From assembly GCF_017348835.2 (NCBI RefSeq), contig NZ_CP072315.1: 64,000 bases of DNA. One strand, given 5' to 3'. The stretch is from Escherichia coli (GTDB taxonomy: Bacteria; Pseudomonadota; Gammaproteobacteria; Enterobacterales; Enterobacteriaceae). Each line of letters opens with the position of its first letter. Position 1 is the stretch's first letter. A program made the position numbers and the translations under genes. Below the pieces are notes generated by a model. The model saw only the letters and a program-made list of their open reading frames with translations, ran no database searches and had not been told where the DNA came from. This document shows, piece by piece, positions 3,274 through 62,155 of this stretch.

Positions 3274-5664
3274 TTATGTTTGAGGGAATTCTATAGCAAA
3301 TGTGGCCGTGCCAGATTGACCACTTACAGCGGGAGTAACGGGATACGTGCGCTCTTCACCATTACCAAGATCCAGTGACAGCGATTTAGTTTCACCAGGC
3401 TGGACCGTAACTCCGGCAACCGTAACGCCGAACTGGGCATTTTTCTGAACAGTCAGGGTTCCGTTTAACTGTCCGGTAATGATAGAACCGTCCTGACGCC
3501 GCAACACACTGGTTCGGATGATGGCCAGCGGCGTGTTGTCCGTTGCTTTCAGTGCTACGGCTGTGGCCAGCGTCTTGAGATTATCCAGCATAATCAGATT
3601 CGCAGGCTGGTAGGTAAAATTAAGCGTTTTAGTGGTCCGGTTACCTGATTCGTCAATAGCCAGTGCCTCCAGATGATACATCTGTCCCGATTCGTCAGTG
3701 TTGGGGAAGATTCTGGGGTATTCCGGAATAAAGACATCCTTGGATAACGGCGTGAATGCCAGGGTGACCTTTTCAGAGTTAGGTCCACCAGCGAGCTGAA
3801 GCGATGTCAGGGAAGCATCCCCAGAGGCATCAGTAACGCTTATGCGAAGGTTCTCAAGCCCTTTAACCAGTTTTCCTTCTGCGTCTGCGCCATTAAAACT
3901 GAACGCGATAACCGGAAGCGTTGAGTCAATTTTCAGCGGTGCATTAAGCGTTTTGGTTCCGGTGTTTCCAACAAGATCCGTGGCAGAGACGCTAACCACC
4001 GTATAATCCCCGTCCGGTAGACCAGCGTATGAGAAGGTGGCGTTTTTGGTTTTATAATCGCTTTCACTGACGGTCACAGGCTTCAGCGTGAAAGGTTCCC
4101 CCCGGGCATTTTTAAGGGTGGCTTCGAAAACTTTGGTATCCCAGTAGCTGATGTTCCAGGCGTTGACGCGATCATTATCGGTGGCCGTCATAGTGATTGT
4201 CTTGGAGGCCTTGTTTACCTGAGCGACATTAACCACCGGTGGGTTGTTATCCCAGATAACCGTAAAATTACCAGCAAGCGCATCGAATATGCTGTCACCA
4301 TCTTTTCCCGAGTAAAGGTGCAGATACTCAAATCCTTTGTCACTGGTGTAGTTGAAGTTAACCGTCATCTCGCATGAACTTTGTCCGATAGGTATAGTGC
4401 AGAACCAGGCTGCATTTTTTACCGTTCTGAACTTTTGCACGTATGGTCGGGGTTCAGCGGTTACCTTTATGCGGCTAATGGTGGCGGTTTTAACGCTGAT
4501 TGAGGCCTGAGTTAACCACTCACTGGTATCACTCCGGTACATCTCTTTAGCCACTATCTTCGGGGCTATTTCCATCGCCGGGGCTGGAGTGAAGTTGAGG
4601 GAGTTATGATGAATTCGTCTTACTCCTCCTGCCAGAGTCTGGAATTCATGATAAGTATCCCCCACATTGGGATATATGTATTTGAAAGTATAAATATTAT
4701 AAGTGCTATCGGACGTCTGGAAATTCGAGTCCGCCCAGCCATATTTGGAACCGTTAACAGCAGTAAAGTCACTTTTTTTCCTTAATACCCGTACGGAAAT
4801 AGGGTTCTGGAAGACGGTCATGCCAGACTGATAAGTGACCCATGATCCGGTAGTGGCGTCCTGCACCTGGATGATATCGTCAGGCTTAACCCGATCAATT
4901 ACGCTTCGGCGGCTTAGTTCGATCCTGTTTCCCGCTTTGTCATAAAGGTAGATCCCCACTTTATATTCAGAGCGGTTTTCCGGTGCCAGGGCATTGCTGC
5001 TTGCGTCGGCGACTTGAACGGTTACGCTACCTTCCACTGTATTAATTTCCGCTGGCTTTTTACGCTCCACTCCAGCGGCATCGGTTATGAAATATTCAGC
5101 ATTAGCAAGCCCGGAACCTTTATCACTCAGTCCATTAAAGACCAGTGCCTGGACGCTGGCGTACTGCATACCGGCTGGTACTGAAGTGAAGATCGCTTCG
5201 CTGCCAAAGTTCCACCCGTTTCTCGTATAACTTATGGTACCCGTTGCCGGAGGCGTTCGGTCAATTGCAAGCGGGTAATCCTGCCGGGAGACCTCCTTCC
5301 CTTGCAAGTCGGTAATCACCTCTCTGAGGGTGAAGCTATCTTCTCCCATCGCTGGTACGGTCAGAGTCTTGCCGTAATAATCAAAGCCTGTCGAAGATGT
5401 GGTACGGTCATCTACGGTAACCAGGCTGCTTTTCGTGCTCCAGATGAGGCTCCCGTCACTTTTCAGCAGACTGAGCGTAATATAACGGTCCAGACCGGAA
5501 ATAACGGCAACGTCAAAGCTCGTTACCGGATTAATCCATACGGATGCAGGCGATACGGTCTTTTTAACGTTCAGGGTATCTTTAAAGCTGAATTCTGCGA
5601 TTTCAGCGGAAGCTCCTGCGCTGAAACCTGCAAATGCAATAAGCAGGGCTAGTTTGATTTTCAT
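3274..5664 (-). CDS. large secreted Ig-like/adhesin-like protein, ~800-aa paralog 1
   Basis: Start moved to the Met preceded by AGGAGA RBS (track start 5691); signal peptide MKIKLALLIAFAGFSAGASA; shares CxIPxGxxSC motif and C-terminal GLENLRI..LAGGP..NFTYQPANL module with ORFs at 9285 and 17587. Confidence 0.7.
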   Translation of the reverse strand: MKIKLALLIAFAGFSAGASAEIAEFSFKDTLNVKKTVSPASVWINPVTSFDVAVISGLDRYITLSLLKSDGSLIWSTKSSLVTVDDRTTSSTGFDYYGKTLTVPAMGEDSFTLREVITDLQGKEVSRQDYPLAIDRTPPATGTISYTRNGWNFGSEAIFTSVPAGMQYASVQALVFNGLSDKGSGLANAEYFITDAAGVERKKPAEINTVEGSVTVQVADASSNALAPENRSEYKVGIYLYDKAGNRIELSRRSVIDRVKPDDIIQVQDATTGSWVTYQSGMTVFQNPISVRVLRKKSDFTAVNGSKYGWADSNFQTSDSTYNIYTFKYIYPNVGDTYHEFQTLAGGVRRIHHNSLNFTPAPAMEIAPKIVAKEMYRSDTSEWLTQASISVKTATISRIKVTAEPRPYVQKFRTVKNAAWFCTIPIGQSSCEMTVNFNYTSDKGFEYLHLYSGKDGDSIFDALAGNFTVIWDNNPPVVNVAQVNKASKTITMTATDNDRVNAWNISYWDTKVFEATLKNARGEPFTLKPVTVSESDYKTKNATFSYAGLPDGDYTVVSVSATDLVGNTGTKTLNAPLKIDSTLPVIAFSFNGADAEGKLVKGLENLRISVTDASGDASLTSLQLAGGPNSEKVTLAFTPLSKDVFIPEYPRIFPNTDESGQMYHLEALAIDESGNRTTKTLNFTYQPANLIMLDNLKTLATAVALKATDNTPLAIIRTSVLRRQDGSIITGQLNGTLTVQKNAQFGVTVAGVTVQPGETKSLSLDLGNGEERTYPVTPAVSGQSGTATFAIEFPQT
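4765..4775. promoter_or_regulatory. palindrome site AAAGTCACTTT (dispersed family)
   Basis: 11-bp core palindrome read directly, inside Ig-like gene 1. Confidence 0.3.
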
Positions 5665-6224
5665 GGGTTGTCTCCTGATCAGGTTCCCCATGATACTTTT
5701 TCAGTGTTCGAGATCTTTTCGGGAAAATAGCTAATTTTAATGTTTTTCTTTTCTGCCCGGCGGGACCTGTTTTGTTCCATTTTTATCAGTGAATGTAATG
5801 AGACCGATTCGTCCACTGTTAACAGTGTAAAAGCGAGGTTGAAAGCCAGCTTTGAGAAGGTTTTCAATAGCTGAAAAAAAATCTTTTTTGAGCATTGGTT
5901 TCAAGATGGTTTTCCTTTTATGCCCGGTGCCGCCGGGACGGTGGCATTAAATATACGCCATGTAAGTAAATTAATTTTTACCCATTTGATTGTCAATACA
6001 AACAAAAAATAAACCATGTTTATTATTTTACCAGCGATGCTATTTTAAAGTCCGTCTAAAATAAAAAACCAAAAAGTTAAATTTGAAGCCATCCTTCCTA
6101 AATTCATTTCTTGCGCATATTAGCCCCTGCTTTAAGTATATAATTTTTGAAAAAGTTGTCTGGAGGTTATTAGCTCGTGCATCTGGATTGTTAATATAAA
6201 GCCAACACAGAAAAGGAAAACAAA

Positions 6225-9284: not shown

Positions 9285-11705
9285 ATGAAACATCTCGCTT
9301 TTATTACTGCTGTAGCCGGACTCGGTATGTCTGTTCAGGCCCCAGCTCAGATATATGAATCGGCCTTTAAGGACACGAACGGTATTGAGATCCACGCCCC
9401 GTCTTCTCGTCTTATGCTTAATCCGGCATCACCGGTAACTTTGACACTTATTTCAGGTCTTGATCGTTTCGTTAATGTCAAAGTCACGAAAGACACTGGA
9501 ACTGTCATTCTTAATACTACGACTACACGGACGGGTGTATCAGACCGACTAACAGCTGCTGACGGTAGTGAGTTCTACGGCAAAAAAGTAACTTTGCCTG
9601 CTTTGGGTGAAGGCAAATTTGTCGTTCAGATAAACGTGTTAGATCTCAATCAGAAGCCTGTAGCGACCTATAACTATAACTGGCTAATTGATGTCACCCC
9701 TCCAGCGGCAAATGCTCTTACCGCTAATACTGGTTCTGGCTCTACCGCTGGTGACGTGTGGAAGCTTGGATTAGAGGCAACGGGGCAGTATGACTTCACC
9801 TCTTCGGGCGTAAGTGATGCAAATGGTATTGATAAGGGCCTAATATATATTTACAGGCAGGACGGTAGCCTCTACAGCACTACACAGATGCAGTATGACG
9901 TATCCGGCCAAAAGATGTACCACACTTACTCTAAGAATTCAGTTAAGGGAACCGGAATACCAGACAGCAACCTGGATGAAGACTTTACTGCAAAAGTTGT
10001 TATCTTCGATAACGCAGGTAATAGCCGAACGCTGCCAACTCAAAAATTTCGCTACGACAACACGCTGGGTGAGATGACACTGTGGGCCGTTCATGATCCA
10101 AATACGTCTTCCAGCGTCGTACCCGGGGTTTCTAATTATCCGGCTTACAAAGCCGGTATGGTCGTTAACGAAAACCCTATTCGATTAGTCTACCGGATCC
10201 CAAAATCTAACTACCGTGCTTATTCAGAAGGTGGGCTTCAGTTCATCAATCAATATTCCGCCCCCAAAGAGATAGCTGTAGACAGCACTTATGCTTATGT
10301 TGAAATGACTCTTCCCTATGGCTCAATTAATGGGGATATGGCTCGTATGGCGAACTTTGGCCAGTGGGGAGGGTATTATCCGTCATACAGCCTCGTTCTA
10401 AACCCATCTGCAAACCAAACGCCTGCATTTGCGGGTACCTGGGTAGATTTCCTCGATGATAAGGGGAACTGGGTTAAGTGGAAGGATTTTGAGAGTGTGG
10501 CTTCATCACGACTGCCAATTAAAATTTCCCGACTTCGTTTTAACGTTGAAGCCCGGCCCTTTGCACAGGAGATCGGCGGTAAGGCGACCTGCACCATTCC
10601 GGCAGGAAAAACCTCGTGTGAAGCGCCTGAGACGTTTGATATGGCCTTGGGTACCCAGGGCTACAATAGAATCCTTTACTTCGTTCGCAGCATCAGCAAT
10701 CCCATTTTGCGGTCTGAGCAATGGATTATGACACGCTGGAACAATAAACAACTGCCGGTAATAAACTCGATATCATATGACGAGACTAACAAGCAGCTGG
10801 ATGTACTGGCGTCACTTGAAGGCGATGGTAACTGGTTCGACTCGGTCTCATTGAGGGAATTTTATCTTTCCGATAAGAACACCGGTACCCGGATGTCACC
10901 AACAGGCGTAATCAAATCTCGTATCTCAGGTAACTACACGATTGCTTATGATTTATCCCGTCAGTCTGAAGGAAAATACAACGTTGAGGTCAACATCAGG
11001 GACTTCTTCCAGAACCAGACCAATAAAACTTTCGGAGAAATTGCTCTGGATAACACTCCTCCGACAGTGGCCATAACATTCGACGGAAAGCCGGTAAAAG
11101 ACGATACGGTAGTGTACGGCCTGGAGAACCTCAGGATCGCTCTGGCAGATAATCTGACAACCCCGAGGATAACCCGTCTTCAGCTCGTAGGTGGCCCCAC
11201 AGCTGATAACGTTGAGCTTACGTGGTCACCGGCAGGCAAAGATACATACATGCCTGAGTATCCGAGGCTGTTCCCAAATTTCGAACCATCTGAAAATTAT
11301 TCAATTAGCGTAACAGTTGCCGATAGTCAGTCGAATACCAAAACCTATACTCAGAAGTTCAGTTATCTACCGAATAACCTTGTGCAGTTACATAATCTAC
11401 GCACATTGTCGGTCAGTTCACCTCTCAAAACGACAGATGGCGTACCACTTGCGTACCTGTCCACTAACGTTCTGCGTAAGACAAATGGAGAAATTGCTAA
11501 AGGGGTCCAGAACGCAACGCTGACTGTGCGGAAGGATGCAGCCTTCGGTATTAAATTTAATGGGGCACAGGCGGCTCCAGGCGAGTCAGTTGAGGTGCAA
11601 ATAGATATGGGCCAGGGGGATAATCTTCTGTTACCCGTTTATCCTTCCGAAAATGGGAAAGTTGGCACCTCAGAATTCATGATTCAGATCGACGAGTTGA
11701 AGTAA
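9285..11705 (+). CDS. large secreted Ig-like/adhesin-like protein, ~800-aa paralog 2
   Basis: AGGGGAA RBS; signal peptide MKHLAFITAVAGLGMSVQA; conserved ISGLDRF, ATCTIPAGKTSC and C-terminal GLENLRI..LVGGP..FSYLPNNLVQL module shared with paralogs. Confidence 0.75.
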   Translation: MKHLAFITAVAGLGMSVQAPAQIYESAFKDTNGIEIHAPSSRLMLNPASPVTLTLISGLDRFVNVKVTKDTGTVILNTTTTRTGVSDRLTAADGSEFYGKKVTLPALGEGKFVVQINVLDLNQKPVATYNYNWLIDVTPPAANALTANTGSGSTAGDVWKLGLEATGQYDFTSSGVSDANGIDKGLIYIYRQDGSLYSTTQMQYDVSGQKMYHTYSKNSVKGTGIPDSNLDEDFTAKVVIFDNAGNSRTLPTQKFRYDNTLGEMTLWAVHDPNTSSSVVPGVSNYPAYKAGMVVNENPIRLVYRIPKSNYRAYSEGGLQFINQYSAPKEIAVDSTYAYVEMTLPYGSINGDMARMANFGQWGGYYPSYSLVLNPSANQTPAFAGTWVDFLDDKGNWVKWKDFESVASSRLPIKISRLRFNVEARPFAQEIGGKATCTIPAGKTSCEAPETFDMALGTQGYNRILYFVRSISNPILRSEQWIMTRWNNKQLPVINSISYDETNKQLDVLASLEGDGNWFDSVSLREFYLSDKNTGTRMSPTGVIKSRISGNYTIAYDLSRQSEGKYNVEVNIRDFFQNQTNKTFGEIALDNTPPTVAITFDGKPVKDDTVVYGLENLRIALADNLTTPRITRLQLVGGPTADNVELTWSPAGKDTYMPEYPRLFPNFEPSENYSISVTVADSQSNTKTYTQKFSYLPNNLVQLHNLRTLSVSSPLKTTDGVPLAYLSTNVLRKTNGEIAKGVQNATLTVRKDAAFGIKFNGAQAAPGESVEVQIDMGQGDNLLLPVYPSENGKVGTSEFMIQIDELK
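9584..9595. promoter_or_regulatory. palindrome site AAAAGTAACTTT (dispersed family)
   Basis: Read directly; the same site plus flank (AAAAGTWACTTTGCCTGCT) recurs at 34713. Confidence 0.3.
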
Positions 11706-17586: not shown

Positions 17587-20043
17587 TTATTTTAATTCTT
17601 CAATGTTAATCATGAACTCAGATCTGCCAGTAAGGCCGGATACAGCAGGGAAAATAGGAAAGCTACGGCTGTCCCCGAGCCCCAAATCCAGTTGAAGCTC
17701 TTTGCTTTCACCTGGCATCGCAGAAACGCCATTTACAGTCACGCCGAATGCAGCGTCCTTACGGACAGTAAGCACTGCGTCCTGAAGCCCTGTAGCGATT
17801 GAACCATCCTTTTTACGCAGCTGGCTGGCATACAGAACAGCCAGAGCAGTATTGTCAGATGTTTTGAGAGAAGCATTGACAGCTAAGGTTTTCAGATTCT
17901 CTAGCCTGACGAGATTGTTTGGAAGGTAGTTAAATTCGACTGAGCTTTCTTTAACGTTGTTCATCTCATCTTTGGCCTGAACTGTGAGAGTGTATGTTTC
18001 GCCTTCATTAAGAGACGGAAAGATCTTGGGATAATTAGGTGCATACAGGTTGTTTCCCAGATTCACCCAAGACAATTCCACCGCATCAGAAACAGGGCCA
18101 CCGCGAAGAGTCATACGGCTTAAGGATGGTTTAGTTAGAGCATCGGTGAGCTGTATACGGACGTTCTCCAGCCCATATACTGTTACGTTTTTGCTGATCG
18201 GTTTTCCTTCGTAGCTAATACTTACAGATGGTGCTGTATTATCAACGACAACTGTTTGATAAGGGAGGTTACCGGTATTGTTGAATGTATCTTGGGCATT
18301 AATCACCACGTTATAACTGCCTTCTGGTACCTCTTTCATGTTGAACTCATACGTGTAGTTCCCAGACGCCATATTTCTACCTGTTTGTTTGCCGGTTACG
18401 CTTATTTCTGCGTTGTTACGGTTTTTATCTGACAACCAAACTCGATTTACATAAACATGGTCGAAATATGAACCATCTCCAGGTTGATTCACGTAAACCT
18501 GGAGAATGTTGGTGGTTTCATTGTAATCAAATCCAGTGACGGAGGGACCCAGTGTATGCCAGGCTATATTCTCCCATATAGGGGCAAAGAAGGTTGCTTC
18601 GGTGGTTGACCTTACTTCATAGCCACTATGAAGATAACCGGTAGTGCCATTTATAATATCCTGGGGCAAAGAGACGGTACAGGTTGTTGAGCCAGCTGGA
18701 ATACTGCATGTTGCTCCGCCAGTGATTTTTTGATCATATGGCCTGGCCTGTACATTGAATCGGATATTAGTAAGTTTTATAGGCATATCAGATGCCTTGA
18801 ACAGGTTCCAGTTTACGCTGTTGAACCATGTTCCATCAGCCTTTTGTCGTTCTATGGGTGAACTTCCCCAAGCCGGACTCTTTACAGAGGCAGGATCCCA
18901 GTTGAGCCAGCTGGCATACTGACCAAGATCTCCTCCAGACCATTGATATGTATTCACAGGTCTATAGTAGTTTCCATCTAAGGCACCCTGTGGCAGCTTA
19001 ACTTCCACGTAGACATAGGTGGCATCTTCGGAAAGGACCTGTACTCCGCCATAGTTATTGGTAATGCTCATGCCACCATTTCGATATGGCTTCCAGTTAG
19101 TTCTTGGGATACGTATAACCAACTTGTAGGGGTTTTCCAGCACTGTAAGGCCTCGTTTAAACGGGACGTATCCCGAAGAAATGCCGGGTACAACACTGGT
19201 GCTTACACGTGAGTCATGAACTGCAAATGGCGTAAATTCTCCCATTTGATCGTCATATAAAAACCGCTGGGGAGGAATGTTAAGCGTATTTCCTGCCAGG
19301 TCCGTAACGATGAAATTGAAGGTGAATTCTTCATCAAGATCACTTGAGGGCATGCCAGCCTGGGTGTTCATATCTTTAATCCACGGATAGAACGCACGTT
19401 TATTGGCTGTGTCATAACTCAGGTTATTGTCGGAGACCACAGAACCATTACTTCGTTTAATGACAAGACGGATCTTGTCAATTCCACTAGCATCCTCAAT
19501 ACCGTCTGCAAATATAGAAAACTGGCCACTACCGCCTCGGCCCAACTCCCAAAGTGGCCCAGAAAGTACCATGTCGTAACCTGCGTTTTGACTCGGATAA
19601 ATACTCTTATAGCGTGGAGGAGTTGTATCAACGATGAAATGATAAGTAGATGTGCTCACTACAGTCTGGCGAATATCCAGAGTTTCATTGACTACAGTAA
19701 AGGTCCCTTCTCCGAGCGCCGGTAGAACCATATCCTTTCCATAGTATTCTGTTCCATCGGCAGCAACGATACGATCTGCAACGCTCGTTTTGGTCGAGAC
19801 GGAGGAATACATAACCTTTTTATCGCTGTCTCGTGTGACCGTCACTCGCTCGTACCGATCAAGACCCGATATCAAGTTCAGAGTCAAAACACCAGCGGGA
19901 TTAAGATATGTTTGTGTTGCAGGTTTGATATTCCGAACAGCCTTATTGGTATCTGTAAATGAGTAGCTAAATACCTGAGCATGTGCCGAAGATACAGTAG
20001 CAAGGGCAGTTGCAACCATGCAGCCAATTAGAGTTTTACGCAT
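17587..20043 (-). CDS. large secreted Ig-like/adhesin-like protein, ~800-aa paralog 3
   Basis: GGAG RBS; signal peptide MRKTLIGCMVATALATVSSAHA; ATCSIPAGSTTC and C-terminal GLENVRI..LRGGP..FNYLPNNLVRLENLKTLAV module shared with paralogs. Confidence 0.75.
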   Translation of the reverse strand: MRKTLIGCMVATALATVSSAHAQVFSYSFTDTNKAVRNIKPATQTYLNPAGVLTLNLISGLDRYERVTVTRDSDKKVMYSSVSTKTSVADRIVAADGTEYYGKDMVLPALGEGTFTVVNETLDIRQTVVSTSTYHFIVDTTPPRYKSIYPSQNAGYDMVLSGPLWELGRGGSGQFSIFADGIEDASGIDKIRLVIKRSNGSVVSDNNLSYDTANKRAFYPWIKDMNTQAGMPSSDLDEEFTFNFIVTDLAGNTLNIPPQRFLYDDQMGEFTPFAVHDSRVSTSVVPGISSGYVPFKRGLTVLENPYKLVIRIPRTNWKPYRNGGMSITNNYGGVQVLSEDATYVYVEVKLPQGALDGNYYRPVNTYQWSGGDLGQYASWLNWDPASVKSPAWGSSPIERQKADGTWFNSVNWNLFKASDMPIKLTNIRFNVQARPYDQKITGGATCSIPAGSTTCTVSLPQDIINGTTGYLHSGYEVRSTTEATFFAPIWENIAWHTLGPSVTGFDYNETTNILQVYVNQPGDGSYFDHVYVNRVWLSDKNRNNAEISVTGKQTGRNMASGNYTYEFNMKEVPEGSYNVVINAQDTFNNTGNLPYQTVVVDNTAPSVSISYEGKPISKNVTVYGLENVRIQLTDALTKPSLSRMTLRGGPVSDAVELSWVNLGNNLYAPNYPKIFPSLNEGETYTLTVQAKDEMNNVKESSVEFNYLPNNLVRLENLKTLAVNASLKTSDNTALAVLYASQLRKKDGSIATGLQDAVLTVRKDAAFGVTVNGVSAMPGESKELQLDLGLGDSRSFPIFPAVSGLTGRSEFMINIEELK

Positions 20044-52409: not shown

Positions 52410-52457
52410 GTGAGAGACAGTACAATCGACTTCTGAGTTCCAACTTGTCTTACCAGG

Positions 52458-52812: not shown

Positions 52813-53265
52813 ATGCTATCTCGCAACTCACTAATACATGGTTTACGCCGAGACCAGTTAATCGGAGTTCTGACTATTTCAGAGTTTCCGGTAGTTATGG
52901 TAGAAAGCCACTTCATTCAGTCTGAGGTTATGGGAATAAAACCCGTAATTTTTAATATTGATGAGCTTCTTGTTTCTATATCCCCAATTTCCTCTCTTAA
53001 GTTCGATTGGGAGTGGGCCCCAGTTGATACAATACTCATTGAAGTTATCATTCCACCTGTAGAGTCAGACCTTGTAAGTGCAGAAAATGACTTCCTCCGT
53101 GATTCTGGTATCGGCCATATCCAGTGCGAGCCTGGCGGAGCATCAATACGACGTACAGTTACCTTCGTTGGTGGAATAACCGCTGATAACTTACTGTATC
53201 AGTTGAGGCTTATGTGCGTAAGTGCGTTAAAACTTTTAGGAGAGGAACTGGGGGATGAAGTCTAA
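52813..53265 (+). CDS. hypothetical protein (150 aa)
   Basis: ATG with AAGG RBS (track start 52786); no motif recognised. Confidence 0.45.
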   Translation: MLSRNSLIHGLRRDQLIGVLTISEFPVVMVESHFIQSEVMGIKPVIFNIDELLVSISPISSLKFDWEWAPVDTILIEVIIPPVESDLVSAENDFLRDSGIGHIQCEPGGASIRRTVTFVGGITADNLLYQLRLMCVSALKLLGEELGDEV

Positions 53266-53680
53266 GATTAGATATGTTTTATCTGGTTTTGTTGTGATAT
53301 GTGCATTTGCTGGAGTTTATAAAATCCTAAACAATGTTCCGGTTAAACCTGACCTTTTGGACTTCACTGGAAACACATTTAAAAAGACATCACTCTTCCT
53401 GCCATGTGATAAAAGCTCGCCTTCTTTAAACATTAAAATTGCTGATAACGAGAAAATCGTGATCAACGGCATCGCTTCAAAAGTAACTTTTGTTGAAAAG
53501 GCTGACCCCGTCAAAAGCCCTGGTTTTTGTGATGATCTTGATCTAAACAATTCTCGCCTTGTACATACGGCATCTTACAGCATGGTGATTTCTGAAACCA
53601 AAACAGGATATACACTCTCAAATTTCAAGCATCTTGCCGATGATGAATCATTAGGTGGTATGTGGTTTTATCAAAAGTGA
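53255..53680 (+). CDS. membrane-anchored or secreted protein (141 aa)
   Basis: GGAG RBS; N-terminal hydrophobic segment. Confidence 0.5.
   Translation: MKSKIRYVLSGFVVICAFAGVYKILNNVPVKPDLLDFTGNTFKKTSLFLPCDKSSPSLNIKIADNEKIVINGIASKVTFVEKADPVKSPGFCDDLDLNNSRLVHTASYSMVISETKTGYTLSNFKHLADDESLGGMWFYQK
53479..53491. promoter_or_regulatory. palindrome site AAAAGTAACTTTT (dispersed family)
   Basis: Exact 13-bp palindrome inside the ORF at 53255-53680. Confidence 0.3.
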
Positions 53681-54243
53681 CTTTTTATATGGCAACTTCA
53701 GACTTCTCTCTTAAAAACCATAATGTAAAAGCTTTTGGTCAGGATGCAGCACTTGTCATTGAGATGAACAATGAAGATGTTAGCTCATCAAAACCTTCAC
53801 CTTTTTCAAATGAGATTGATAATTATTATCTTACATTGCACGTCGCTCCGAGGAACGCCAAAAAAGATTATGACTGGGGCTCAAACCGTTCTGTACTTCT
53901 AAAATTGTCGACGAATGAAGTTATGCAGATGGCATCTGTATTTCTTAGAATCATGCATACTTTAAAAATTGATAAGAGGAAAACCTCACATCATGGCCAC
54001 GTCGTATACAAAAATATAAGCGTTACCCCAAACGAGAGGGGCGGTTTGTTGTTATCAGCAGGGATAGTTCCAGTCGATAAAGACGGCTTAAAACCCTTCA
54101 TGCACATGGTCCCCGTCTCACAAATGGACTGCGTTAAAATTGGCCTCTACATACTTGGATATCTTGCTCAAAAAACGCCTTGGGTAAGCTCCGAGTCTAT
54201 AATTACCGCGCTTCGCTTATCTGAAGCCAAGAATTCAAAATAG
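53662..54243 (+). CDS. hypothetical protein (193 aa)
   Basis: GTG start with AGGTGG RBS; alternative ATG at 53689. Confidence 0.45.
   Translation: MVLSKVTFYMATSDFSLKNHNVKAFGQDAALVIEMNNEDVSSSKPSPFSNEIDNYYLTLHVAPRNAKKDYDWGSNRSVLLKLSTNEVMQMASVFLRIMHTLKIDKRKTSHHGHVVYKNISVTPNERGGLLLSAGIVPVDKDGLKPFMHMVPVSQMDCVKIGLYILGYLAQKTPWVSSESIITALRLSEAKNSK
53673..53685. promoter_or_regulatory. palindrome site AAAAGTGACTTTT (dispersed family, central G)
   Basis: Read directly at the start of the ORF at 53662. Confidence 0.35.
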
Positions 54244-54362
54244 CGTATTAACATACGGAATACATGGAAAAATACAGGTTTTTTTAAATGTTATACGAAC
54301 GGATATTTCTGTTTTTCATCGTAAAGTGAGTTTAATTTTGCTCAGAAAAACAGGTATTCGTC

Positions 54363-57300
54363 ATGAGAAAATCAGGTTTAGGTTTAGCCCTGTTGTTTTC
54401 TTTAATTGCTCCGATTAAAGCGGTCTATGCCGAAGCGATTATGATTTCAGGAAAGCTACAGGCTGATTTGCCAGCCGTATCCTTTGACCCGGGGCCGGGC
54501 GACTTTGTTGCATACGTTAATTCTAACACTATCACTGCCTCAGGTGCAGGCACAGCCTGTAATGTAACGGTTGATGATCGAGCGACTTCCTCTGTTGATA
54601 ACCTCGTTTGTTTTTTTGAGTGGTTACCCAATACCTTGGGATTTACTTCTAACGGTTTCACTCTTTCAGGCGTTCCCAACACCACCGGTGATTTAAAACT
54701 ACCTTACAAGATTTCTTACTTCTCTGGTTCTGAACGGAAAAAAGTTGAAATAGTAAAAGGTGAATATTCAATCAAAAGTGTGGCACCGGTAAAACCTACT
54801 ATCACCGGTCTTAAATCATCCCTGAACGGATTAGTCTATGACGGCTTTTCTTTCAAATCGTATTTAAAGGATGAAGCGATCAAAGATATCGCTGTTTCTG
54901 TTGAGCCCCGCAATTATATTCAATACATCTCAATAGGTTCAGGCTCCGCCTGTGAAGTTCCTATTGGCGGAACTTCCTGTACCATTGAAGTTGGAAGCAT
55001 TAAGGCCAGTGATACAGATGAACTTTTGGGTTCACGTGATATCACAATTACAGCAAACTCTAAGAATAATTATTTCGCACCTCCTGAATCCAAAAAGCTT
55101 GTTGTTAACTGGGATTATCGGCCTCCTGTAGTAGACCATACACTTTGGAATTTTACCGATGAGGCTAAAACAATCAAAGTAGGTGGCCAGGACATCTATA
55201 CCGGAGCCAAAACCGTTGCTGTGGCCGTTAAGGTACCCCAGCAAGAAACAGAAGGTGAATGGTGGCTCCCAACAGCTATGTCGCTCACTATGACTCCGGA
55301 TGGCGTGTTTAAACCGACGACTAAAGTGACTTTAGATGATGGCACTGAGATTGATTTCAAACAGTCCTGGGCAACCCCTTTACGTAGAACTTTACAGCCG
55401 GTAAGTGGACCTCAAAAAGTCGGTGATGAGTACCTCTATATCTTCGACTTAACGGATCTTATAAACGGGTCCTACGCAGCGACTTTTACAGTAGAAAATA
55501 CGAGCAAAAACTCTTCTACGTACACTGAGCCTGAAAGCAAACTGATGCTGTCTGATAACCCAACGCTTATGGTTCTCAAAGATGGGCAGGTATTAACTAA
55601 ACGAGCACCCGTATACTTCCTGAACGAGATTATCGTTGCAGCTTTCCAGGGGCAGGCTGGGGTTGCTGACATAAAATCAGTAACAATAGACAACAAAGTA
55701 GTTTCGTTAACACCTACAAATTATAGAGGTATTTACTACCTGCCGGTTGGAGACGATTTAGCAGTTAATTCGGATCACGAGATTACTGTGGTGGCTGAAA
55801 ACCTTTATGGAAAAAACGTTAATTTCAGTACCGTTTTCACTTATCAACCTACTGGATTCACTCTCAAGAATCTGGAAAAAAACGTAACTCTTTACTCGCG
55901 TGTACGTCAGTATACGGACCTGCTTAGTCAAACAGCTGGTGATAAATGCACTCTGTTTACCACAGAGGAAAATGCGAATGCTTACCTCGCCTGGTATGGG
56001 GAAAAATCAGATGTTACAGCATGCTACCCTCAGTGGAACAATGTCCCTGATGGGTTGGAGTTCTATTTTAAAGGACGTACCCCGGGTCTAACTGGATTCT
56101 TTAATAAAACAGGTGAGAATCTGCTCGACTATCAAGTCTATATGATTAACGGGAAGGGCTCTAAAGCGGTATCCGCAAGGAATCGCCGTACTCTGACCAC
56201 ACAATTACCATACAACCCGATCATCTCTTACAAAAAGAATAAAGTCATAGCTGGCATCAATCCGAACACTGCTCTGGCTTATACGACCGGGGGGGAGGCC
56301 GCTCGAATATTAGCGAAGGTGGTACCAGCTGACGTTACGATGATCGTCTCTCAAAACGGCTCTGAGGCTGTCAAAACGTCATTTAAAAATCGTTCCTCAA
56401 ACAACGATGCAACGACCTTTGTACAAAGGGTTAAGGTTGCTGCTGCACCATTGTGGACAAAGAACGTCTTTGACATAGCTGTAGAATACTCAAAGGATCC
56501 AGAATTAAGAACTACAGACACACTCAACGTATATACGGTGCCTGATTTCAATATTCGAGCATCGATGGAAGTGGATGACAGAAAAACAGCCACATCTCTT
56601 GAAGTGCCCTTAAAGGTAACAGTGGGGCGTTATAACAACTCCACACGTAAAAGTGCATTTGACCGTAAAACAATGGGAGAATGGGACGTCACGATATACT
56701 CGCAAAAAAGTGTATACGGCAAAGATCCAGAAACAGGCCGTTATAAAACTACATACGAAAGAACTGCGCTGACTGAAGCATTGCCGGTCAATGATGCGGG
56801 CATTGTCGAAACCAAGATTAAAATTGAAAATATGGATCTGGGTAATATGCGTCTGGTTGGTGTGGCTAAGGTCAGATCGCCATTCTCTGATTTTGAAATG
56901 AAACGTGAGACCAGTGCTGTAGGCATTCGAATCTATAAAGGTGAGGAACTGGAGGGTAACCTGTCGAAAAGCCTTATTATCGGAAGGATCCCACTTAGTA
57001 CTCTGGTAAGCTTCAAATCTGCCAGTACTGCTAACTCTGACGCACTTGCCCCCACCGAATGGCAGCAGTCCTCTGATAATGGTCAAACCTGGAATATGCT
57101 TTCCGACATGACCGGAAAGAGAAGTGTAAGTATCAAAAAGACAGAAGTAGGAAAGTGGCTTTATAGGGCAAAAATGACCAATAAATTCACATCTAAGGTT
57201 TCCTACACAGATGCCTTAACGGTAGTTACCTACAAGCAGCCTAAGCTCAGTATAGATGTGACAGACATTCTTCAGGGCTCAGATGTACCTGTAACCCTGC

Positions 57301-58667
57301 TTGATAACGATGAGCCTATACCAGCAGGCACCGCTGAGGTTCTCTGGTCAGAGGATAAAGTCAACTGGGTGCAGGGAGATACAACTTACACTGTGGCTTC
57401 AGCTGATACCCTACCGTCTACGATTTATGCCCGGATGCGTTACCTTGATTCCGATGAACTGGCAGAGGAGTCTTCATGGAAGGAAACGTCTGCTCGGTTG
57501 GCAGCCGCAAAACCCAAGCGCCTTTCTGTCTCGGTAACGGGGGTTTCTAAGGTAGAGGTTGGTCAAAAAGTTACTTTGGAAGGTAAGTTCACGAACCCTA
57601 ACAGTAAGTACCAGAATGGTAATAACGTAGTTGAAGAATGGAAAACACCGGATGGCCAGACATTTAAAGGCTCTACACTGTCTGTTACCCTTACTGAGCA
57701 AATGTTGGATAAACAGGGATATGCTGCTTTTGAATACAGTGCATGGTTAGCGGACAATAAGGAGAATACGGTTTCTACCCGTAGAGTTTCTGTCAAATCG
57801 TGGGTTTATAAATTCCCCGAAATGAAAATAAGCTCCAAACTTAAATACGACATGGCACCGACCACCCTACGCGTTGCGTTGAGCGGTATTAAGGATGGAG
57901 ACTATCCTGGTGTTACTTATTCCCGAGAATGGATTTACGACAAAGAGAATCTGGTAATCACTAAAGATGAAGGTGACACCAAAGAATTTACAATTGAAAA
58001 TCCTGGCAAATATACATTGATGGTTGTTTTCAAAGATAACCGCAACAATGAACAGCGTATCGAAAATACCTTTGTTGTCGATGAACAAACGCCAATGAAC
58101 GTTGAGATGACACCCAAGTTCTCTAACAAATATATGAGAGCTCCACTCGATGTAACCTTAAGGTCAAACATCAAGCTATCTCATTCGGCGGACTCGATAG
58201 ATACGGTCACATACAAGGTGAACGGTGAGGTAATACCCAGCGGCAAAAATTATTGGGCTCAACTGATTTCGGGTTTAAAAGAAAAGAAATACGAGATCAC
58301 AATTGATGTTGTTAGTAAACTTGGACAGAGAGGTTCAGCATCTGTTGAGTTTGATGTCGTTAAAAACGCAGTGCCTAATTGTACATTGAGCTACACGGAA
58401 ACCAACCTAAGCTGGAGCTTTACCAATAAATGTGATGATACTGATGGAAAAATGGTTAGATATGAATGGTTCATCAACGGCGAATTAAGGAACGTTTTCG
58501 GTAGTACGGCTACACTTTCTAAAAACCTTAACCGTGGTAAGCAGGACATAAAAGTAATTGCTTATGATGATAGTGGAGACTTTGCAACGCAGCACGTGAC
58601 AGTTTTCGGACCGGCTGAAGAGGCAAGTAAGTCTGAAAACACTGTATCAATACCAAGCAGTGAGTAA
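54363..58667 (+). CDS. very large secreted Ig-like/adhesin-like protein (1434 aa)
   Basis: Signal peptide MRKSGLGLALLFSLIAPIKAVYA; Thr/Ser/Val/Asn-rich repeated modules; shares the CxxPxGGTSC motif with the three ~800-aa paralogs; strong terminator downstream. Confidence 0.75.
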   Translation: MRKSGLGLALLFSLIAPIKAVYAEAIMISGKLQADLPAVSFDPGPGDFVAYVNSNTITASGAGTACNVTVDDRATSSVDNLVCFFEWLPNTLGFTSNGFTLSGVPNTTGDLKLPYKISYFSGSERKKVEIVKGEYSIKSVAPVKPTITGLKSSLNGLVYDGFSFKSYLKDEAIKDIAVSVEPRNYIQYISIGSGSACEVPIGGTSCTIEVGSIKASDTDELLGSRDITITANSKNNYFAPPESKKLVVNWDYRPPVVDHTLWNFTDEAKTIKVGGQDIYTGAKTVAVAVKVPQQETEGEWWLPTAMSLTMTPDGVFKPTTKVTLDDGTEIDFKQSWATPLRRTLQPVSGPQKVGDEYLYIFDLTDLINGSYAATFTVENTSKNSSTYTEPESKLMLSDNPTLMVLKDGQVLTKRAPVYFLNEIIVAAFQGQAGVADIKSVTIDNKVVSLTPTNYRGIYYLPVGDDLAVNSDHEITVVAENLYGKNVNFSTVFTYQPTGFTLKNLEKNVTLYSRVRQYTDLLSQTAGDKCTLFTTEENANAYLAWYGEKSDVTACYPQWNNVPDGLEFYFKGRTPGLTGFFNKTGENLLDYQVYMINGKGSKAVSARNRRTLTTQLPYNPIISYKKNKVIAGINPNTALAYTTGGEAARILAKVVPADVTMIVSQNGSEAVKTSFKNRSSNNDATTFVQRVKVAAAPLWTKNVFDIAVEYSKDPELRTTDTLNVYTVPDFNIRASMEVDDRKTATSLEVPLKVTVGRYNNSTRKSAFDRKTMGEWDVTIYSQKSVYGKDPETGRYKTTYERTALTEALPVNDAGIVETKIKIENMDLGNMRLVGVAKVRSPFSDFEMKRETSAVGIRIYKGEELEGNLSKSLIIGRIPLSTLVSFKSASTANSDALAPTEWQQSSDNGQTWNMLSDMTGKRSVSIKKTEVGKWLYRAKMTNKFTSKVSYTDALTVVTYKQPKLSIDVTDILQGSDVPVTLLDNDEPIPAGTAEVLWSEDKVNWVQGDTTYTVASADTLPSTIYARMRYLDSDELAEESSWKETSARLAAAKPKRLSVSVTGVSKVEVGQKVTLEGKFTNPNSKYQNGNNVVEEWKTPDGQTFKGSTLSVTLTEQMLDKQGYAAFEYSAWLADNKENTVSTRRVSVKSWVYKFPEMKISSKLKYDMAPTTLRVALSGIKDGDYPGVTYSREWIYDKENLVITKDEGDTKEFTIENPGKYTLMVVFKDNRNNEQRIENTFVVDEQTPMNVEMTPKFSNKYMRAPLDVTLRSNIKLSHSADSIDTVTYKVNGEVIPSGKNYWAQLISGLKEKKYEITIDVVSKLGQRGSASVEFDVVKNAVPNCTLSYTETNLSWSFTNKCDDTDGKMVRYEWFINGELRNVFGSTATLSKNLNRGKQDIKVIAYDDSGDFATQHVTVFGPAEEASKSENTVSIPSSE
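55323..55333. promoter_or_regulatory. palindrome site AAAGTGACTTT (dispersed family)
   Basis: Read directly, inside the 1434-aa gene. Confidence 0.25.
57566..57577. promoter_or_regulatory. palindrome site AAAAGTTACTTT (dispersed family)
   Basis: Read directly, inside the 1434-aa gene. Confidence 0.25.
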
Positions 58668-58682
58668 TAAATTTTTAAATAT

Positions 58683-58712
58683 AAAGCCGGGACATTTTGT
58701 CCCGGCTTTTTT
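58683..58712 (+). terminator. rho-independent terminator after the 1434-aa gene
   Basis: Hairpin AAGCCGGGAC-ATTTT-GTCCCGGCTT followed by TTTTTT. Confidence 0.7.
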
Positions 58713-58749
58713 ATGCCCAACAATTGGACCTTTGAAAAATTAATACCGG

Positions 58750-58760: not shown

Positions 58761-58944
58761 GCTACAAAGGTATCTTTCATGGCCGCTAACAAGGCTGCGT
58801 CTACATGCTGAGAAATTAACATCCTTATAGGTTAATATTAGGTTAGTTTGCAGACTTCCGAGCGTTGAAAAACATGGATAATAGTTACTTGGATAGAGGT
58901 GTATCTACTTAGTAAAAATATTCTTCAGTGCTAGTGAGAAAAAT

Positions 58945-59457
58945 ATGAGCGACTACATACCTAAAAAGAGAGGGCTGCTTATACTGGATTGGTATGTCCC
59001 CATTAATATTTTATTGCTGATTCTCGTTATGTGTGTCTTTTTCACCCGTTATACATTTGGATACGGTTTATTGAATGGGTGCCTGCCTGCTGATTTTTAT
59101 ATGATTGATCATTCGGATAAAACTATTAAAACTGGTGAACTCATAGCTTTCAACATGCCGAAATCGGTTCGTTTTATCCCAGAAAATGAACGAGTCATAA
59201 AAATTGTTGCCGGTGTGGGCGGTGACAAACTCAAAGTAACAATGGATGGGGTTTATAACGGGGACAAATTTTTTGAAGCTAATGCACGTCGTATTTCAAA
59301 GAAATACAGTATTCCGTCCATTTTGATTGAAAAAGAATTGATAATTCCTGAAGGCGAAGTTTTCCTAATTGGGCAAACCGATCACTCATGGGATTCCCGT
59401 TTTTGGGGAACAGTAAAGCTGAATTCAGTAATTGGGAAAACATATGCGATCTTTTAA
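58945..59457 (+). CDS. trhP: TraF(RP4)-type signal peptidase I-like pilin-processing peptidase (TrhP-like)
   Basis: 170 aa with N-terminal TM segment and S26-like C-terminal region; position before traW/traU homologs. Confidence 0.6.
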   Translation: MSDYIPKKRGLLILDWYVPINILLLILVMCVFFTRYTFGYGLLNGCLPADFYMIDHSDKTIKTGELIAFNMPKSVRFIPENERVIKIVAGVGGDKLKVTMDGVYNGDKFFEANARRISKKYSIPSILIEKELIIPEGEVFLIGQTDHSWDSRFWGTVKLNSVIGKTYAIF

Positions 59458-60955
59458 TGTAAATAAAAAATATTTACCAATACTTCCTGGACTTGCGTTA
59501 TGTGCAGTTTTAAGTAATACAAATGCAAGCACTGAGTATCAACATGATGCTGACCTAATCGCTCAGCAAGCAAAAGGGCTTGGCGCTCAGGCTAAAGGTG
59601 CACAGCAGCCAGATGGGGCTCTTAGCCTTGATGCTACGCTAAATTCACCAGATGTGCAGAAGTACATTGCGCAAGCTGAAGCACTCAAAAAAAACCAGGA
59701 CCTGAGCAGGCAAACAAACCGTGGTTACGTGCCCGGTATGAATGCGGATAGTGTTCAAGCAGTTATAGACCATACCCAGGCTATAAGGGCCCAAAGTAAT
59801 AACTCTGATGCTGTCAACGATATAATTAGAAGACGTGATGAAATTCAGGAAAACGCCAGCCTTAATGAAGCGGCTCTGAAAGCTGTGGAAAATAAGCCGG
59901 AAGTCATGCGAGGACAATCTAAAAATATCGAAAAATTGTTTGGTTCCTCGGGCATCACAGCTGCTGACTTCGAAAGAAAAATGGATAGCACACGTGAAGA
60001 AGCACTATCAACTGAAAATGGTATAACGATCTTTGCTTCATTTAGCTTACCGGATTATGTACTGGAAGACCTTTTACGTACGGCCTCAGAGCATAAAGCT
60101 CGTGTAGTTTTCAATGGTCTAAAGAAAGGAACTACTCGGCTACCAGAGACACAGGCAGCAATAAACCAAATGATTGTCAAAGGAAAATTTGAATCTCCTT
60201 TGATTACAATTGATCCTGATAGCTTCAGTCAGTATCAAGTAACTCAAGTACCGACAATTATTTCTCGGGAGCAAGCTCGTTTTGCAAAAATGGTAGGGTC
60301 CTTCAACGTTGAGTTTTTTCAGCGAGAACTTGCTAAAAAACCCGATCAGGACATTTTTCCTGTTGCTGGTACGATTTATCCCGTTGAAGAAAAGAGCATC
60401 ATTAAAGAACTGGAAGAACGCGCACAAAAATATGACTGGGAAGGTGCAAAAAAAAGGGCCGTTGCGGACACCTGGAAAAATCAATGGATGGTCGATCTCC
60501 CTCCTGCCCAGGAACACAAAGAATTTTTAATTGACCCTACAGTGAGGGTCACTCAGGACGTAAAAGATAAGCAGGGCCGTGTAATAGCTTCCGCCGGTGA
60601 GTTGATTAATCCACTTTCGAGATTTCCTCAAAACCTGACGATGATAATTTTCGATCCACTCAATCCGGGCCAGCTGGTATGGGCTGAGCAGCAGTATCGA
60701 CAACGTCTGGGTAGTGGAAAAGTAATGCCAATGTTTACCCGTATCCAAAAAGATAATGGATGGGATCACCTAAATGATTTACGTGAAAAATTTAACGGTA
60801 AGGTGTTTAAAGTAAACGAACAGATTATCTCACGCTTTCAGATTAAAAATACACCTGCGCTTATAACTACTGACCAAGATAAATTCCGGATCACCCTGTT
60901 TAGCGAGGCAGAAGTCCGTGGAATCGGAGCCCCAAATCTTTCAGAGGAAAAATAA
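59444..60955 (+). CDS. trhW: TraW/TrhW-like pilus assembly protein (503 aa)
   Basis: ATG start with signal peptide MRSFNVNKKYLPILPGLALCAVLSNTNA (track uses upstream TTG); position in conserved W-U-N order. Confidence 0.5.
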   Translation: MRSFNVNKKYLPILPGLALCAVLSNTNASTEYQHDADLIAQQAKGLGAQAKGAQQPDGALSLDATLNSPDVQKYIAQAEALKKNQDLSRQTNRGYVPGMNADSVQAVIDHTQAIRAQSNNSDAVNDIIRRRDEIQENASLNEAALKAVENKPEVMRGQSKNIEKLFGSSGITAADFERKMDSTREEALSTENGITIFASFSLPDYVLEDLLRTASEHKARVVFNGLKKGTTRLPETQAAINQMIVKGKFESPLITIDPDSFSQYQVTQVPTIISREQARFAKMVGSFNVEFFQRELAKKPDQDIFPVAGTIYPVEEKSIIKELEERAQKYDWEGAKKRAVADTWKNQWMVDLPPAQEHKEFLIDPTVRVTQDVKDKQGRVIASAGELINPLSRFPQNLTMIIFDPLNPGQLVWAEQQYRQRLGSGKVMPMFTRIQKDNGWDHLNDLREKFNGKVFKVNEQIISRFQIKNTPALITTDQDKFRITLFSEAEVRGIGAPNLSEEK

Positions 60956-60956
60956 T

Positions 60957-61091
60957 ATGAAACTCGGATTTATTATAGGCGCTCTCTTTGCAACATGGCT
61001 GACGCTAAATTATCCGGACCAGATGAGAAGTTATTTTACCAAAGCCGTCGACTATATCGAAAGTGTTGCAACATTTATTACATCCAAGTGA
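60957..61091 (+). CDS. small hydrophobic protein (44 aa), not in ORF track
   Basis: GAGGAAA RBS 8 nt upstream; reads MKLGFIIGALFATWLTLNYPDQMRSYFTKAVDYIESVATFITSK; fills the trhW-trhU gap. Confidence 0.3.
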   Translation: MKLGFIIGALFATWLTLNYPDQMRSYFTKAVDYIESVATFITSK

Positions 61092-61093
61092 GC

Positions 61094-62155
61094 ATGATGG
61101 TGAAAAAATTCAAAAAGTTACTTTTAGAGTTCATTGTAGCAGTTATGCTTTCGCTTTCTATACCTGGTATGGCTATGGCAGCAGATGCTGGAGTCCCTGG
61201 GGCTATGTGTCAGTCAGCTGGAGTGTGGCAGGGCTTGATTAAGAATATCTGTTGGAGCTGCATTTTTCCCATGAGGATAATGGGCATAGGGGCTGCTCCA
61301 GAAGGCGCTGCACCTTCACGTCCGGGTTGCTACTGCACAGATCAGAACGGCGTACCGGAAATAGGTTGGCAATTGAGCTTCTTTCAGCCGGTGAAGATTG
61401 TAGAAGTTGTAAAGAGCCCCTGGTGCAGCCCCTTTCTTGAAGGCACGATGCTTCAAAAATCGCAGTTTGATATTGGTAAAAGCAACACTAATCAGCCAAT
61501 GACAGCAACTGAAGCCGGATTTTACGATGTTCATCTTTGGGAGTTCCCAATCATGACAATGCTCAAATTACTGATTATTGGCGAGTGCACTGCTGAACCC
61601 TATATAGATGCCAGCCTGACCTATATAAGCGAAGTGGACCCTATGTGGGAAAGTGATCTGCTTACACTCGTCCTGAATCCCGAGGCAGTAGTTTTTGCAA
61701 ACCCAATTGCCTCAATGGTGTGCGCTGCTGACTGTGTAGCAGTAACAGCAGGAAAGGATAATCTCGCTGCATACTTTTGTGCCGGATGCGATGGCAACCT
61801 TTACCCATTAACCGGCCACATTTACGCAAATGATGACGCTGTAAGGACGAGTTCACTGATTACCCAGCGTCTTCTGACAAAACTACATCGCCAAGGCATG
61901 CTGATGCGAACGATGGGAGCAGACGCAATGTGTGAGAAAACGTGGGAATACTTTACACCACGTTCCCAGTATCGGCTTTCAATGCTTTTCCCTACTCCTG
62001 AGGCGAAGGGACCGGATTGCTGTCATCGTCTTGGTGATTCGGTACACGACTGGTCAACCCTTAAAGGTGGGCGCAAAAAAATAGGCAACGATAATTATGT
62101 CTATATGTTGTGGCGTTACAATGACTGTTGTGTTCGCTACGTTCCAGGCGTTTGA
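61094..62155 (+). CDS. trhU: TraU/TrhU-like pilus assembly protein (Cys-rich, secreted)
   Basis: Start at internal ATG (MMVKKFKK...) 2 nt after the small ORF stop; signal peptide; many conserved cysteines. Confidence 0.65.
   Translation: MMVKKFKKLLLEFIVAVMLSLSIPGMAMAADAGVPGAMCQSAGVWQGLIKNICWSCIFPMRIMGIGAAPEGAAPSRPGCYCTDQNGVPEIGWQLSFFQPVKIVEVVKSPWCSPFLEGTMLQKSQFDIGKSNTNQPMTATEAGFYDVHLWEFPIMTMLKLLIIGECTAEPYIDASLTYISEVDPMWESDLLTLVLNPEAVVFANPIASMVCAADCVAVTAGKDNLAAYFCAGCDGNLYPLTGHIYANDDAVRTSSLITQRLLTKLHRQGMLMRTMGADAMCEKTWEYFTPRSQYRLSMLFPTPEAKGPDCCHRLGDSVHDWSTLKGGRKKIGNDNYVYMLWRYNDCCVRYVPGV
61113..61125. promoter_or_regulatory. palindrome site AAAAGTTACTTTT (dispersed family)
   Basis: Exact 13-bp palindrome at the 5' end of trhU. 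Confidence 0.35.

Follow-up and report, generated by a model that had tools for sequence, protein, structure and literature searches.

RSP of an IncHI2 plasmid, an ortholog of the R27 conjugation protein RSP with a predicted signal peptide, Ig-like modules, and three RSP2-family relatives

INTRODUCTION

IncHI2 plasmids rank among the main carriers of resistance genes such as mcr-1. We analyzed a 64,000-nucleotide stretch (the window) of an Escherichia coli contig (NZ_CP072315.1, assembly GCF_017348835.2), and in particular its longest open reading frame (ORF) by far, at 54363 to 58667. An initial annotation, made from the sequence, had described this ORF as a secreted, immunoglobulin (Ig)-like protein of 1,434 amino acids and had suggested a role in mating rather than as cargo. 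The gene is rsp, the IncHI2 ortholog of the gene for RSP (ORF R0009) of plasmid R27 (IncHI1), a protein that is already known and experimentally characterized in R27.

R27 RSP was found in the secretome (Hüttener 2019, PMC6764697) and detected by liquid chromatography-tandem mass spectrometry (LC-MS/MS). The same study predicted a β-sheet content of ~61%, a Big_3 domain at residues 331 to 470, and Phyre2 likeness to SiiE and SraP, with the SiiE match at the C terminus. Deletion of rsp rendered R27 transfer undetectable at 25 °C, and rsp in trans on a low-copy vector restored it; rsp cloned with its own promoter complemented the deletion. RSP lowers motility, binds flagella, and depends for export on TrhC, the ATPase of the type IV secretion system (T4SS). 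Cell fractionation detected a periplasmic pool of RSP as well as protein in the cytoplasm and inner membrane; SSPred predicted type IV export, and the authors describe export of RSP by the T4SS. All IncHI plasmids available at the time, 34 IncHI1 and 102 IncHI2, carried an R0009 allele (all PMC6764697). RSP co-precipitates with TrhH and with RSP2 (R0055), a 794-aa Ig-like protein; neither RSP nor RSP2 is exported without TrhH and the pilin TrhA, both proteins coat the conjugative pilus, and RSP2, too, binds flagella (Hüttener 2022, PMC8730810). Immunogold labeling places RSP on flagella and conjugative pili (PMC6764697; PMC8730810), and the protein has been targeted with nanobodies (Prieto 2024, PMC11268884).

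Several other systems offer points of comparison. Fibrillar Ig-like adhesins (SiiE, SraP, and BapA-type) are, like RSP, long extracellular chains of β-sandwich modules. TraN of F-like plasmids, an outer-membrane protein, and PilV of the IncI thin pilus, a pilus-tip adhesin, are plasmid-encoded surface adhesins for mating-pair formation that raise mating especially in liquid. Pertussis toxin enters the periplasm through Sec, forms disulfides there, and then crosses the outer membrane in a Ptl type IV-dependent step. A Big-domain protein of the IncA/C plasmid pKAZ3 (ALG87338.1) is also an Ig-like secreted protein of a tra region and is needed for conjugation at 25 °C and not at 37 °C (PMC8730810).

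RESULTS

The 4.3-kb open frame is rsp in an IncHI2 Tra2 backbone

54363..58667, plus strand: rsp coding sequence (IncHI-type conjugal transfer protein RSP, WP_001232107.1), 1,434 aa from an ATG start, taken from the ORF list and translation

The window protein aligns with R27 RSP over 1,428 residues at 84% identity (93% positives, 0 gaps). A megablast search of 72,556 plasmid records with the ORF matched 1,125, of which 1,088 at ≥99% identity, in Escherichia, Salmonella, Enterobacter, Klebsiella, and Citrobacter hosts. An identical (100%) protein is annotated as "rsp: IncHI-type conjugal transfer protein RSP" in more than 1,000 plasmid records. No NCBIfam model matches RSP, so the NCBI annotation pipeline (PGAP) must have assigned this name by a different rule.

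In two identical IncHI2A plasmids (MOBH relaxase, MPF_F), parA and parB are followed by four genes on the reverse strand and then by parM, a parR-like gene, htdA, and two small genes; next come rsp, the S26 peptidase gene annotated as "trhF," the TrbC-family gene trhW, trhU, trhN, and trhI. The first 25 kb of the window hold repHI2 and three genes for "Ig-like domain-containing proteins." From this annotation and gene order, together with repHI2, the window is IncHI2 backbone covering Tra2. The order around rsp is the same in R27, where the gene lies between htdK and trhP in the htdA-trhN (AN) operon of Tra2, and it is kept around a homolog of only 50% identity (parM, parR, three small genes, rsp, S26 peptidase, TrbC/W, TraU, and TraN).

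Only the weakness of the Pfam match and the lack of an NCBIfam match would speak for a long ORF arisen by chance or for a pseudogene in decay. That explanation is refuted by a 4.3-kb frame that stays open at full length in homologs from 100% down to 26% identity, by confident AlphaFold2 models, and by detection of the ortholog by LC-MS/MS (PMC6764697). The 1,434-aa ORF is thus real, exactly as the initial annotation had it.

A predicted signal peptide and eight invariant cysteines

54363..54431, plus strand: predicted Sec-type signal peptide, residues 1 to 23, with cleavage between VYA and EA, recognized by sequence shape

RSP begins with MRKSGLGLALLFSLIAPIKAVYA, followed directly by EAIMISGKL. 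The n-region of this leader is basic, its core is hydrophobic, and positions -3 and -1 hold small residues. In 18 homolog clusters, which range from 100% to 26% identity, the leader varies in sequence and keeps its Sec shape, and in the RSP homologs a conserved mature N terminus, E[AS]IM[IV]SG, follows it immediately. RSP contains exactly eight cysteines (66, 83, 197, 206, 529, 554, 1340, and 1357), all invariant in the family alignments down to 26% identity. In the AlphaFold2 models, each of the pairs 66/83, 197/206, 529/554, and 1340/1357 sits on neighboring strands of a single module, suggesting four intradomain disulfides. Together, the signal peptide and the invariant cysteines suggest export via the periplasm.

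A gene annotated as a protein-disulfide isomerase, htdT, lies at 37123 to 37875 within the same Tra2 region. HtdT may assist folding at the invariant cysteine pairs of RSP and at the one pair that each RSP2-like protein described below keeps in its loop motif.

The main competing view is that RSP is a one-step substrate, which the T4SS recruits in the cytoplasm and drives out through the conjugation channel, and that its hydrophobic N terminus is not a cleaved Sec signal. This agrees with the requirement for TrhC, the SSPred prediction, and the view of the authors of the R27 work (PMC6764697; PMC8730810). It fits poorly with a canonical signal-peptide shape kept in 18 homologs beside a conserved mature end, with the periplasmic pool seen in R27 (PMC6764697), and with eight invariant cysteines that suggest periplasmic disulfides. 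Further, the acidic, disordered C-terminal tail shows little conservation and does not look like a dedicated secretion signal, and the TrhA and TrhH dependence fits a dependence on pilus assembly equally well (PMC8730810). We therefore consider one-step export unlikely and favor passage through the periplasm.

RSP modules repeat in fold, not in sequence

55428..55853, plus strand: Big_3_3 (bacterial Ig-like group 3) region, residues 356 to 497, a weak match to Pfam PF13750; the same domain is reported at 331 to 470 in R27 RSP (PMC6764697)
58359..58610, plus strand: C-terminal PKD-like β-sandwich module, residues ~1333 to 1416, with the invariant pair C1340/C1357, from profile searches of the PDB and from Pfam PKD

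The Big_3_3 match is weak (E 5.6e-4; 20 bits, below the 27-bit gathering cut-off). AlphaFold2 was run on two overlapping halves, residues 24 to 760 and 721 to 1434, with 11-sequence alignments, and returned models that are almost entirely β-strand, with mean pLDDT (predicted local distance difference test) values of 82.1 and 80.7, respectively. There are few, short helices (the longest at 535 to 545), and the last ~15 residues are disordered. From the strand strings of these models, we estimate that RSP comprises approximately 13 β-sandwich modules.

Foldseek searches of the PDB with both halves matched only tandem arrays of the Ig, fibronectin type III, cadherin, or macroglobulin type, along with the GhpA grappling-hook neck; the TM-scores were low, which is to be expected of flexible chains. 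No specific binding function could be assigned to any module from these searches. In the Pfam and fold searches, RSP showed no enzyme, toxin, β-barrel, or RTX element and no type I secretion system (T1SS), autotransporter, or sortase/LPXTG feature; the Sec-type leader is the only export feature present. Sequence searches of the PDB with whole RSP and with a profile of the N-terminal half gave nothing meaningful, the sole match being that of the last module to PKD domains. A profile of alignment A2 matches PDB PKD domains (6aem, E 6e-5; collagenase PKD, ~1e-4), and Pfam PKD matches 7 of 11 RSP family members (best E 7e-5).

The initial annotation had spoken of repeated β-rich modules in a secreted, Ig-like protein and had proposed domain and structure prediction as a check. 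The outcome, all-β models of tandem modules with a PKD-like last module, bears out the β-rich modules (in the AlphaFold2 models, the Foldseek matches, and the weak Big_3_3 match), and the Sec-shaped N terminus agrees with secretion. The repetition is one of fold and not of sequence: RSP aligned to itself by BLAST gave no off-diagonal alignment at E values up to 10.

Evidence for a role in mating

The initial annotation's preference for mating over cargo is supported by gapless orthology at 84% identity to R27 RSP, by the same AN-operon position, and by the R27 data (PMC6764697; PMC8730810). Its proposed experiments, deletion with complementation and immunolocalization, have been published for the R27 ortholog and agree with a mating role (PMC6764697; PMC8730810). 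For IncHI2, the evidence on rsp function that we found is limited to pMG101: a stock with ISEc27 in rsp is non-transmissible and a stock with intact rsp transfers at 25 °C, a difference for which the authors flag possible polar effects (PMC8417528).

RSP could instead be mainly an adhesin or biofilm factor of benefit to the host, cargo within the transfer region, with a conjugation defect that is indirect or polar. It is built like fibrillar adhesins, both in our Foldseek matches and in the published Phyre2 likeness to SiiE and SraP (PMC6764697), and the effect of the pMG101 insertion could be a polar one on expression of trhP, trhW, trhU, and trhN (PMC8417528). In R27, however, rsp in trans rescued transfer, which excludes polarity (PMC6764697), and RSP attaches to the conjugative pilus and is pulled down with TrhH (PMC8730810). 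The AN-operon position is conserved at 50% identity, and RSP family members occur solely alongside H-type transfer genes. We regard the cargo explanation as very improbable and retain a role in conjugation.

Insertion sequences (IS2, other IS3-family elements, IS1203, and ISKpn26) interrupt rsp in ~15 IncHI2 plasmid records that ranked at the top of the matches (e.g., NZ_PP626394.1, CP056986.1, and NZ_CP067308.1). In an evenly spaced sample of the matches, the rsp match was split in two pieces in 2 of 60. We therefore rejected the idea that such insertions are frequent; they affect a small minority. Plasmids with an interrupted rsp are likely transfer-impaired variants.

RSP shares a core with the RSP2 family, which has three intact members in this plasmid

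54951..54980, plus strand: cysteine-loop motif CEVPIGGTSC, residues 197 to 206, a single occurrence in the six-frame translation
54876..55895, plus strand: core common to RSP and the RSP2 family, residues 172 to 511 (cysteine-loop module through Big_3_3), from hhalign and BLASTP
3274..5691, minus strand: RSP2-family paralog A, 805 aa (DUF4165, Big_3_2, and Big_3_3 by Pfam), 38% identical to R27 RSP2 at full length and its closest counterpart
9285..11705, plus strand: RSP2-family paralog B, 806 aa (Pfam), 32% identical to RSP2 at full length and 86% identical to a 198-aa R27 fragment
17587..20043, minus strand: RSP2-family paralog C, 818 aa (Pfam), 35% identical to RSP2 at full length and 82% identical to an IS30-truncated 719-aa R27 gene

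RSP had been said to share a cysteine motif with the ~800-aa proteins of the window. In its exact form, C-x-x-P-x-G-G-T-x-C, the motif occurs in the six-frame translation in RSP alone. The ~800-aa proteins have CTIPIGQSSC, CTIPAGKTSC, and CSIPAGSTTC, which follow the looser pattern C-x-[IV]-P-x-G-x-[ST]-[ST]-C, and the R27 proteins have CEVAIGGNGC (RSP) and CNVSVGESSC (RSP2). What is conserved is a C-x8-C loop after an [EQ]-[PA]-R-x-[YF]-x-Q strand, and alignment A1 shows the two loop cysteines (its C174 and C183) unchanged throughout the family.

The looser form belongs to a longer similarity. Profile comparison by hhalign between the RSP family and the RSP2-like family, the latter profile being built without R27 RSP2 itself, gave a probability of 98% and an E value of 2.6e-13 over 288 columns, pairing RSP 172 to 511 with 404 to 709 of the RSP2-like proteins, a stretch that includes their strong Big_3_3 region. 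Similarly, BLASTP aligned RSP 168 to 277 with paralog A 400 to 505 (E 4e-6). By these sequence comparisons, RSP and the RSP2 family have in common a homologous core of ~300 aa that goes beyond a motif.

Paralogs A, B, and C have Sec-type leaders and the same DUF4165, Big_3_2, and Big_3_3 domains as R27 RSP2. Pfam detected neither DUF4165 nor Big_3_2 in RSP, and both are strong in the three paralogs and in R27 RSP2; RSP is therefore a relative of the RSP2 family and not a member of it. R27 RSP2 and the three window proteins resemble RSP in being secreted and Ig-like, in their Sec-type leaders, and in the ~300-aa core, and differ in being ~800 aa long and starting with DUF4165 and Big_3_2, whereas RSP has a C-terminal extension of ~900 aa predicted to consist of β-sandwich modules.

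In R27, the orthologs of paralogs C and B are decayed (18925 to 21084, truncated by IS30, and 25629 to 26225, a 198-aa remnant, respectively), and the 38% identity between RSP2 and its closest IncHI2 counterpart is far under the ~84% level of the backbone. R27 thus keeps one intact RSP2-family member, RSP2, and this IncHI2 plasmid keeps three. RSP2 has been reported as IncHI1-specific and absent from IncHI2 plasmids (the 2022 mSphere paper, PMC8730810), and we found no paper linking RSP2 or DUF4165 to IncHI2 in the literature searched. The RSP homolog of lowest identity (26%) is encoded on Vibrio sp. plasmid CP090982, with an RSP2-like gene (29% identity to RSP2) ~1.3 kb away, the two genes being at 5355 to 7739 and 9001 to 13206; replication and partition genes separate the RSP homolog from S26 peptidase and TrbC genes. 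The adjacency in this plasmid suggests that the RSP/RSP2 pairing is old.

A conserved terminator and a likely internal promoter

58683..58714, plus strand: intrinsic terminator, 12-bp perfect hairpin AAAGCCGGGACA/TGTCCCGGCTTT and T-run, 16 nt past the stop codon, from inverted-repeat search and folding
54244..54362, plus strand: htdK-rsp intergenic region, likely internal rsp promoter site; the R27 equivalent drives lacZ (PMC7366339), blocks are conserved with R27, and there is no strong sigma-70 consensus

The gene has its own strong terminator, as had been proposed. The hairpin (58683 to 58709) folds at -20.4 kcal/mol (z -4.9), and none of 200 shuffled sequences folds as well. R27 has the same 3' arm and T-tract within a diverged spacer, and its altered 5' arm still pairs. 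A consensus promoter and terminator scan missed this hairpin, which was found by inverted-repeat search and folding, and revealed no convincing sigma-70 promoter upstream of rsp. In R27, an ARNold search reported a terminator after htdK only (PMC7366339), and the hairpin after rsp appears to have gone unnoted in that study. The terminator is probably leaky, because reverse transcription-PCR (RT-PCR) in R27 shows R0009-trhP co-transcription beside a discrete R0009 transcript (PMC7366339).

Both spacers flanking R0009 in R27, htdK-R0009 and R0009-trhP, are promoter-active (PMC7366339). Within the AN operon, an internal promoter and a conserved terminator would allow RSP, a very abundant structural protein, to be expressed separately from trhP, trhW, trhU, and trhN. 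In the diverged rsp-trhP spacer, a 16-nt island, AAAACATGGATAATAG, at 58869 to 58884 is perfectly kept between IncHI2 and R27. It may be part of the internal trhP promoter reported for R27 (PMC7366339).

Neighboring genes

52813..54243, plus strand: proximal AN-operon genes, from the annotation of identical plasmids and the R27 AN operon composition (PMC7366339), namely the next three
52813..53265, plus strand: htdA, from the annotation of identical plasmids
53255..53680, plus strand: htdF-like gene, same source
53689..54243, plus strand: htdK-like gene, same source
58945..62155, plus strand: downstream AN-operon genes trhP, trhW, and trhU, from Pfam Peptidase_S26, TrbC_Ftype, and TraU and from annotation, namely the next three
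58945..59457, plus strand: trhP, S26 peptidase (Pfam Peptidase_S26), "TrhF" in PGAP
59444..60955, plus strand: trhW (Pfam TrbC_Ftype and annotation)
61100..62155, plus strand: trhU (Pfam TraU and annotation)

The placement of rsp between parMR and trhP holds on the downstream side, where the S26 peptidase gene follows; upstream, parMR is not adjacent, and htdA and the htdF-like and htdK-like genes intervene. The peptidase gene is named trhP in the R27 literature and "TrhF" by PGAP. Directly 3' of the parR-like gene, at the boundary between the parMR cassette and htdA, lies a terminator-like hairpin, GCCAGCATACTTGCTGGC, with a T-run (52461 to 52488; hairpin, 52461 to 52478). The G+C content rises from 36 to 38% at 46001 to 54000 (the par/htd region) to 42 to 44% at 54001 to 58000, across rsp.

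DISCUSSION

We conclude with high confidence that the window protein is the IncHI2 ortholog of R27 RSP and a large extracellular accessory protein of H-type (MOBH/MPF_F) conjugation, most likely acting by the following mechanism. The mature protein, ~1,411 aa long, would be an elongated chain of ~13 Ig-like β-sandwich modules with a PKD-like end module and a short disordered tail. Its N-terminal Sec signal peptide would carry it into the periplasm, where the four invariant cysteine pairs would form intradomain disulfides, with HtdT encoded in the same transfer region. RSP would reach the surface and the medium only once the T4SS and pilus are assembled; the dependence on TrhC, TrhA, and TrhH is established for R27, and from it we infer a second, pilus-assembly-dependent step. 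Finally, RSP would coat flagella and the H-pilus with partners of the RSP2 family, lowering motility and raising donor-recipient contact and transfer, especially in liquid at ~25 °C, as was demonstrated for R27.

Several points weigh against this account. The signal peptide and disulfides are read from sequence only, and the published papers treat RSP as a substrate of the T4SS and make no mention of a signal peptide (PMC6764697; PMC8730810). In R27, RSP is also present in cytoplasmic and inner-membrane fractions (PMC6764697). The count of ~13 modules is approximate, being taken from secondary-structure strings. In R27, transcription runs on from R0009 into trhP, so the terminator is not absolute (PMC7366339). 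Data on the regulation of rsp conflict: R27 microarrays show R0009 as unresponsive to temperature (PMC7366339), and lacZ and quantitative RT-PCR data show thermoregulation (PMC6764697). Lastly, the deletion and complementation data come from R27, so the function of this IncHI2 allele is transferred by orthology.

Among described systems, R27 RSP is closest, with the same operon position, eight cysteines, and terminator, and with a reported Big_3 region to which the weak match in the window protein would correspond; the window protein is the IncHI2 allele and differs from it in the loop motif. The pKAZ3 protein ALG87338.1 was not recovered in our homolog search, and its likeness is one of function and architecture only. 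Unlike fibrillar adhesins, RSP has no sequence-similar tandem repeats and no T1SS, autotransporter, or sortase features, and its export depends on the conjugative T4SS. TraN and PilV differ in that RSP is released and coats filaments, and this plasmid has its own TraN copy, trhN. With pertussis toxin and Ptl, RSP would share a two-step logic; this is an analogy without homology, RSP being structural or adhesive and dependent on pilus assembly.

More tentatively, RSP and RSP2 may be the two halves of an ancient module that H-type conjugative plasmids inherit together. IncHI2 has three intact RSP2-family members, two of them intact forms of genes that have decayed in R27, all with the ~300-aa common core. 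These proteins would probably be partly redundant or host-range-tuning partners of RSP on pili and flagella, and all would reach the surface through Sec and a pilus-assembly-dependent step rather than as classical T4SS substrates. We regard this broader proposal as a possibility, well below our confidence in the account given above.

The present finding adds nothing new on the role of RSP, which by orthology is surface-exposed and needed for the spread of IncHI2 plasmids and which has already been proposed as an antibody or nanobody target. What it adds are modest leads: a predicted signal peptide with invariant cysteines, a model of ~13 modules of which the last is PKD-like, a terminator conserved in R27, a shared core, and three RSP2-like genes. 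The Sec-exported, disulfide-bonded look of RSP would refine the published model of RSP as a T4SS substrate, and the three intact RSP2-like partners in IncHI2 could matter for the targeting of these proteins.

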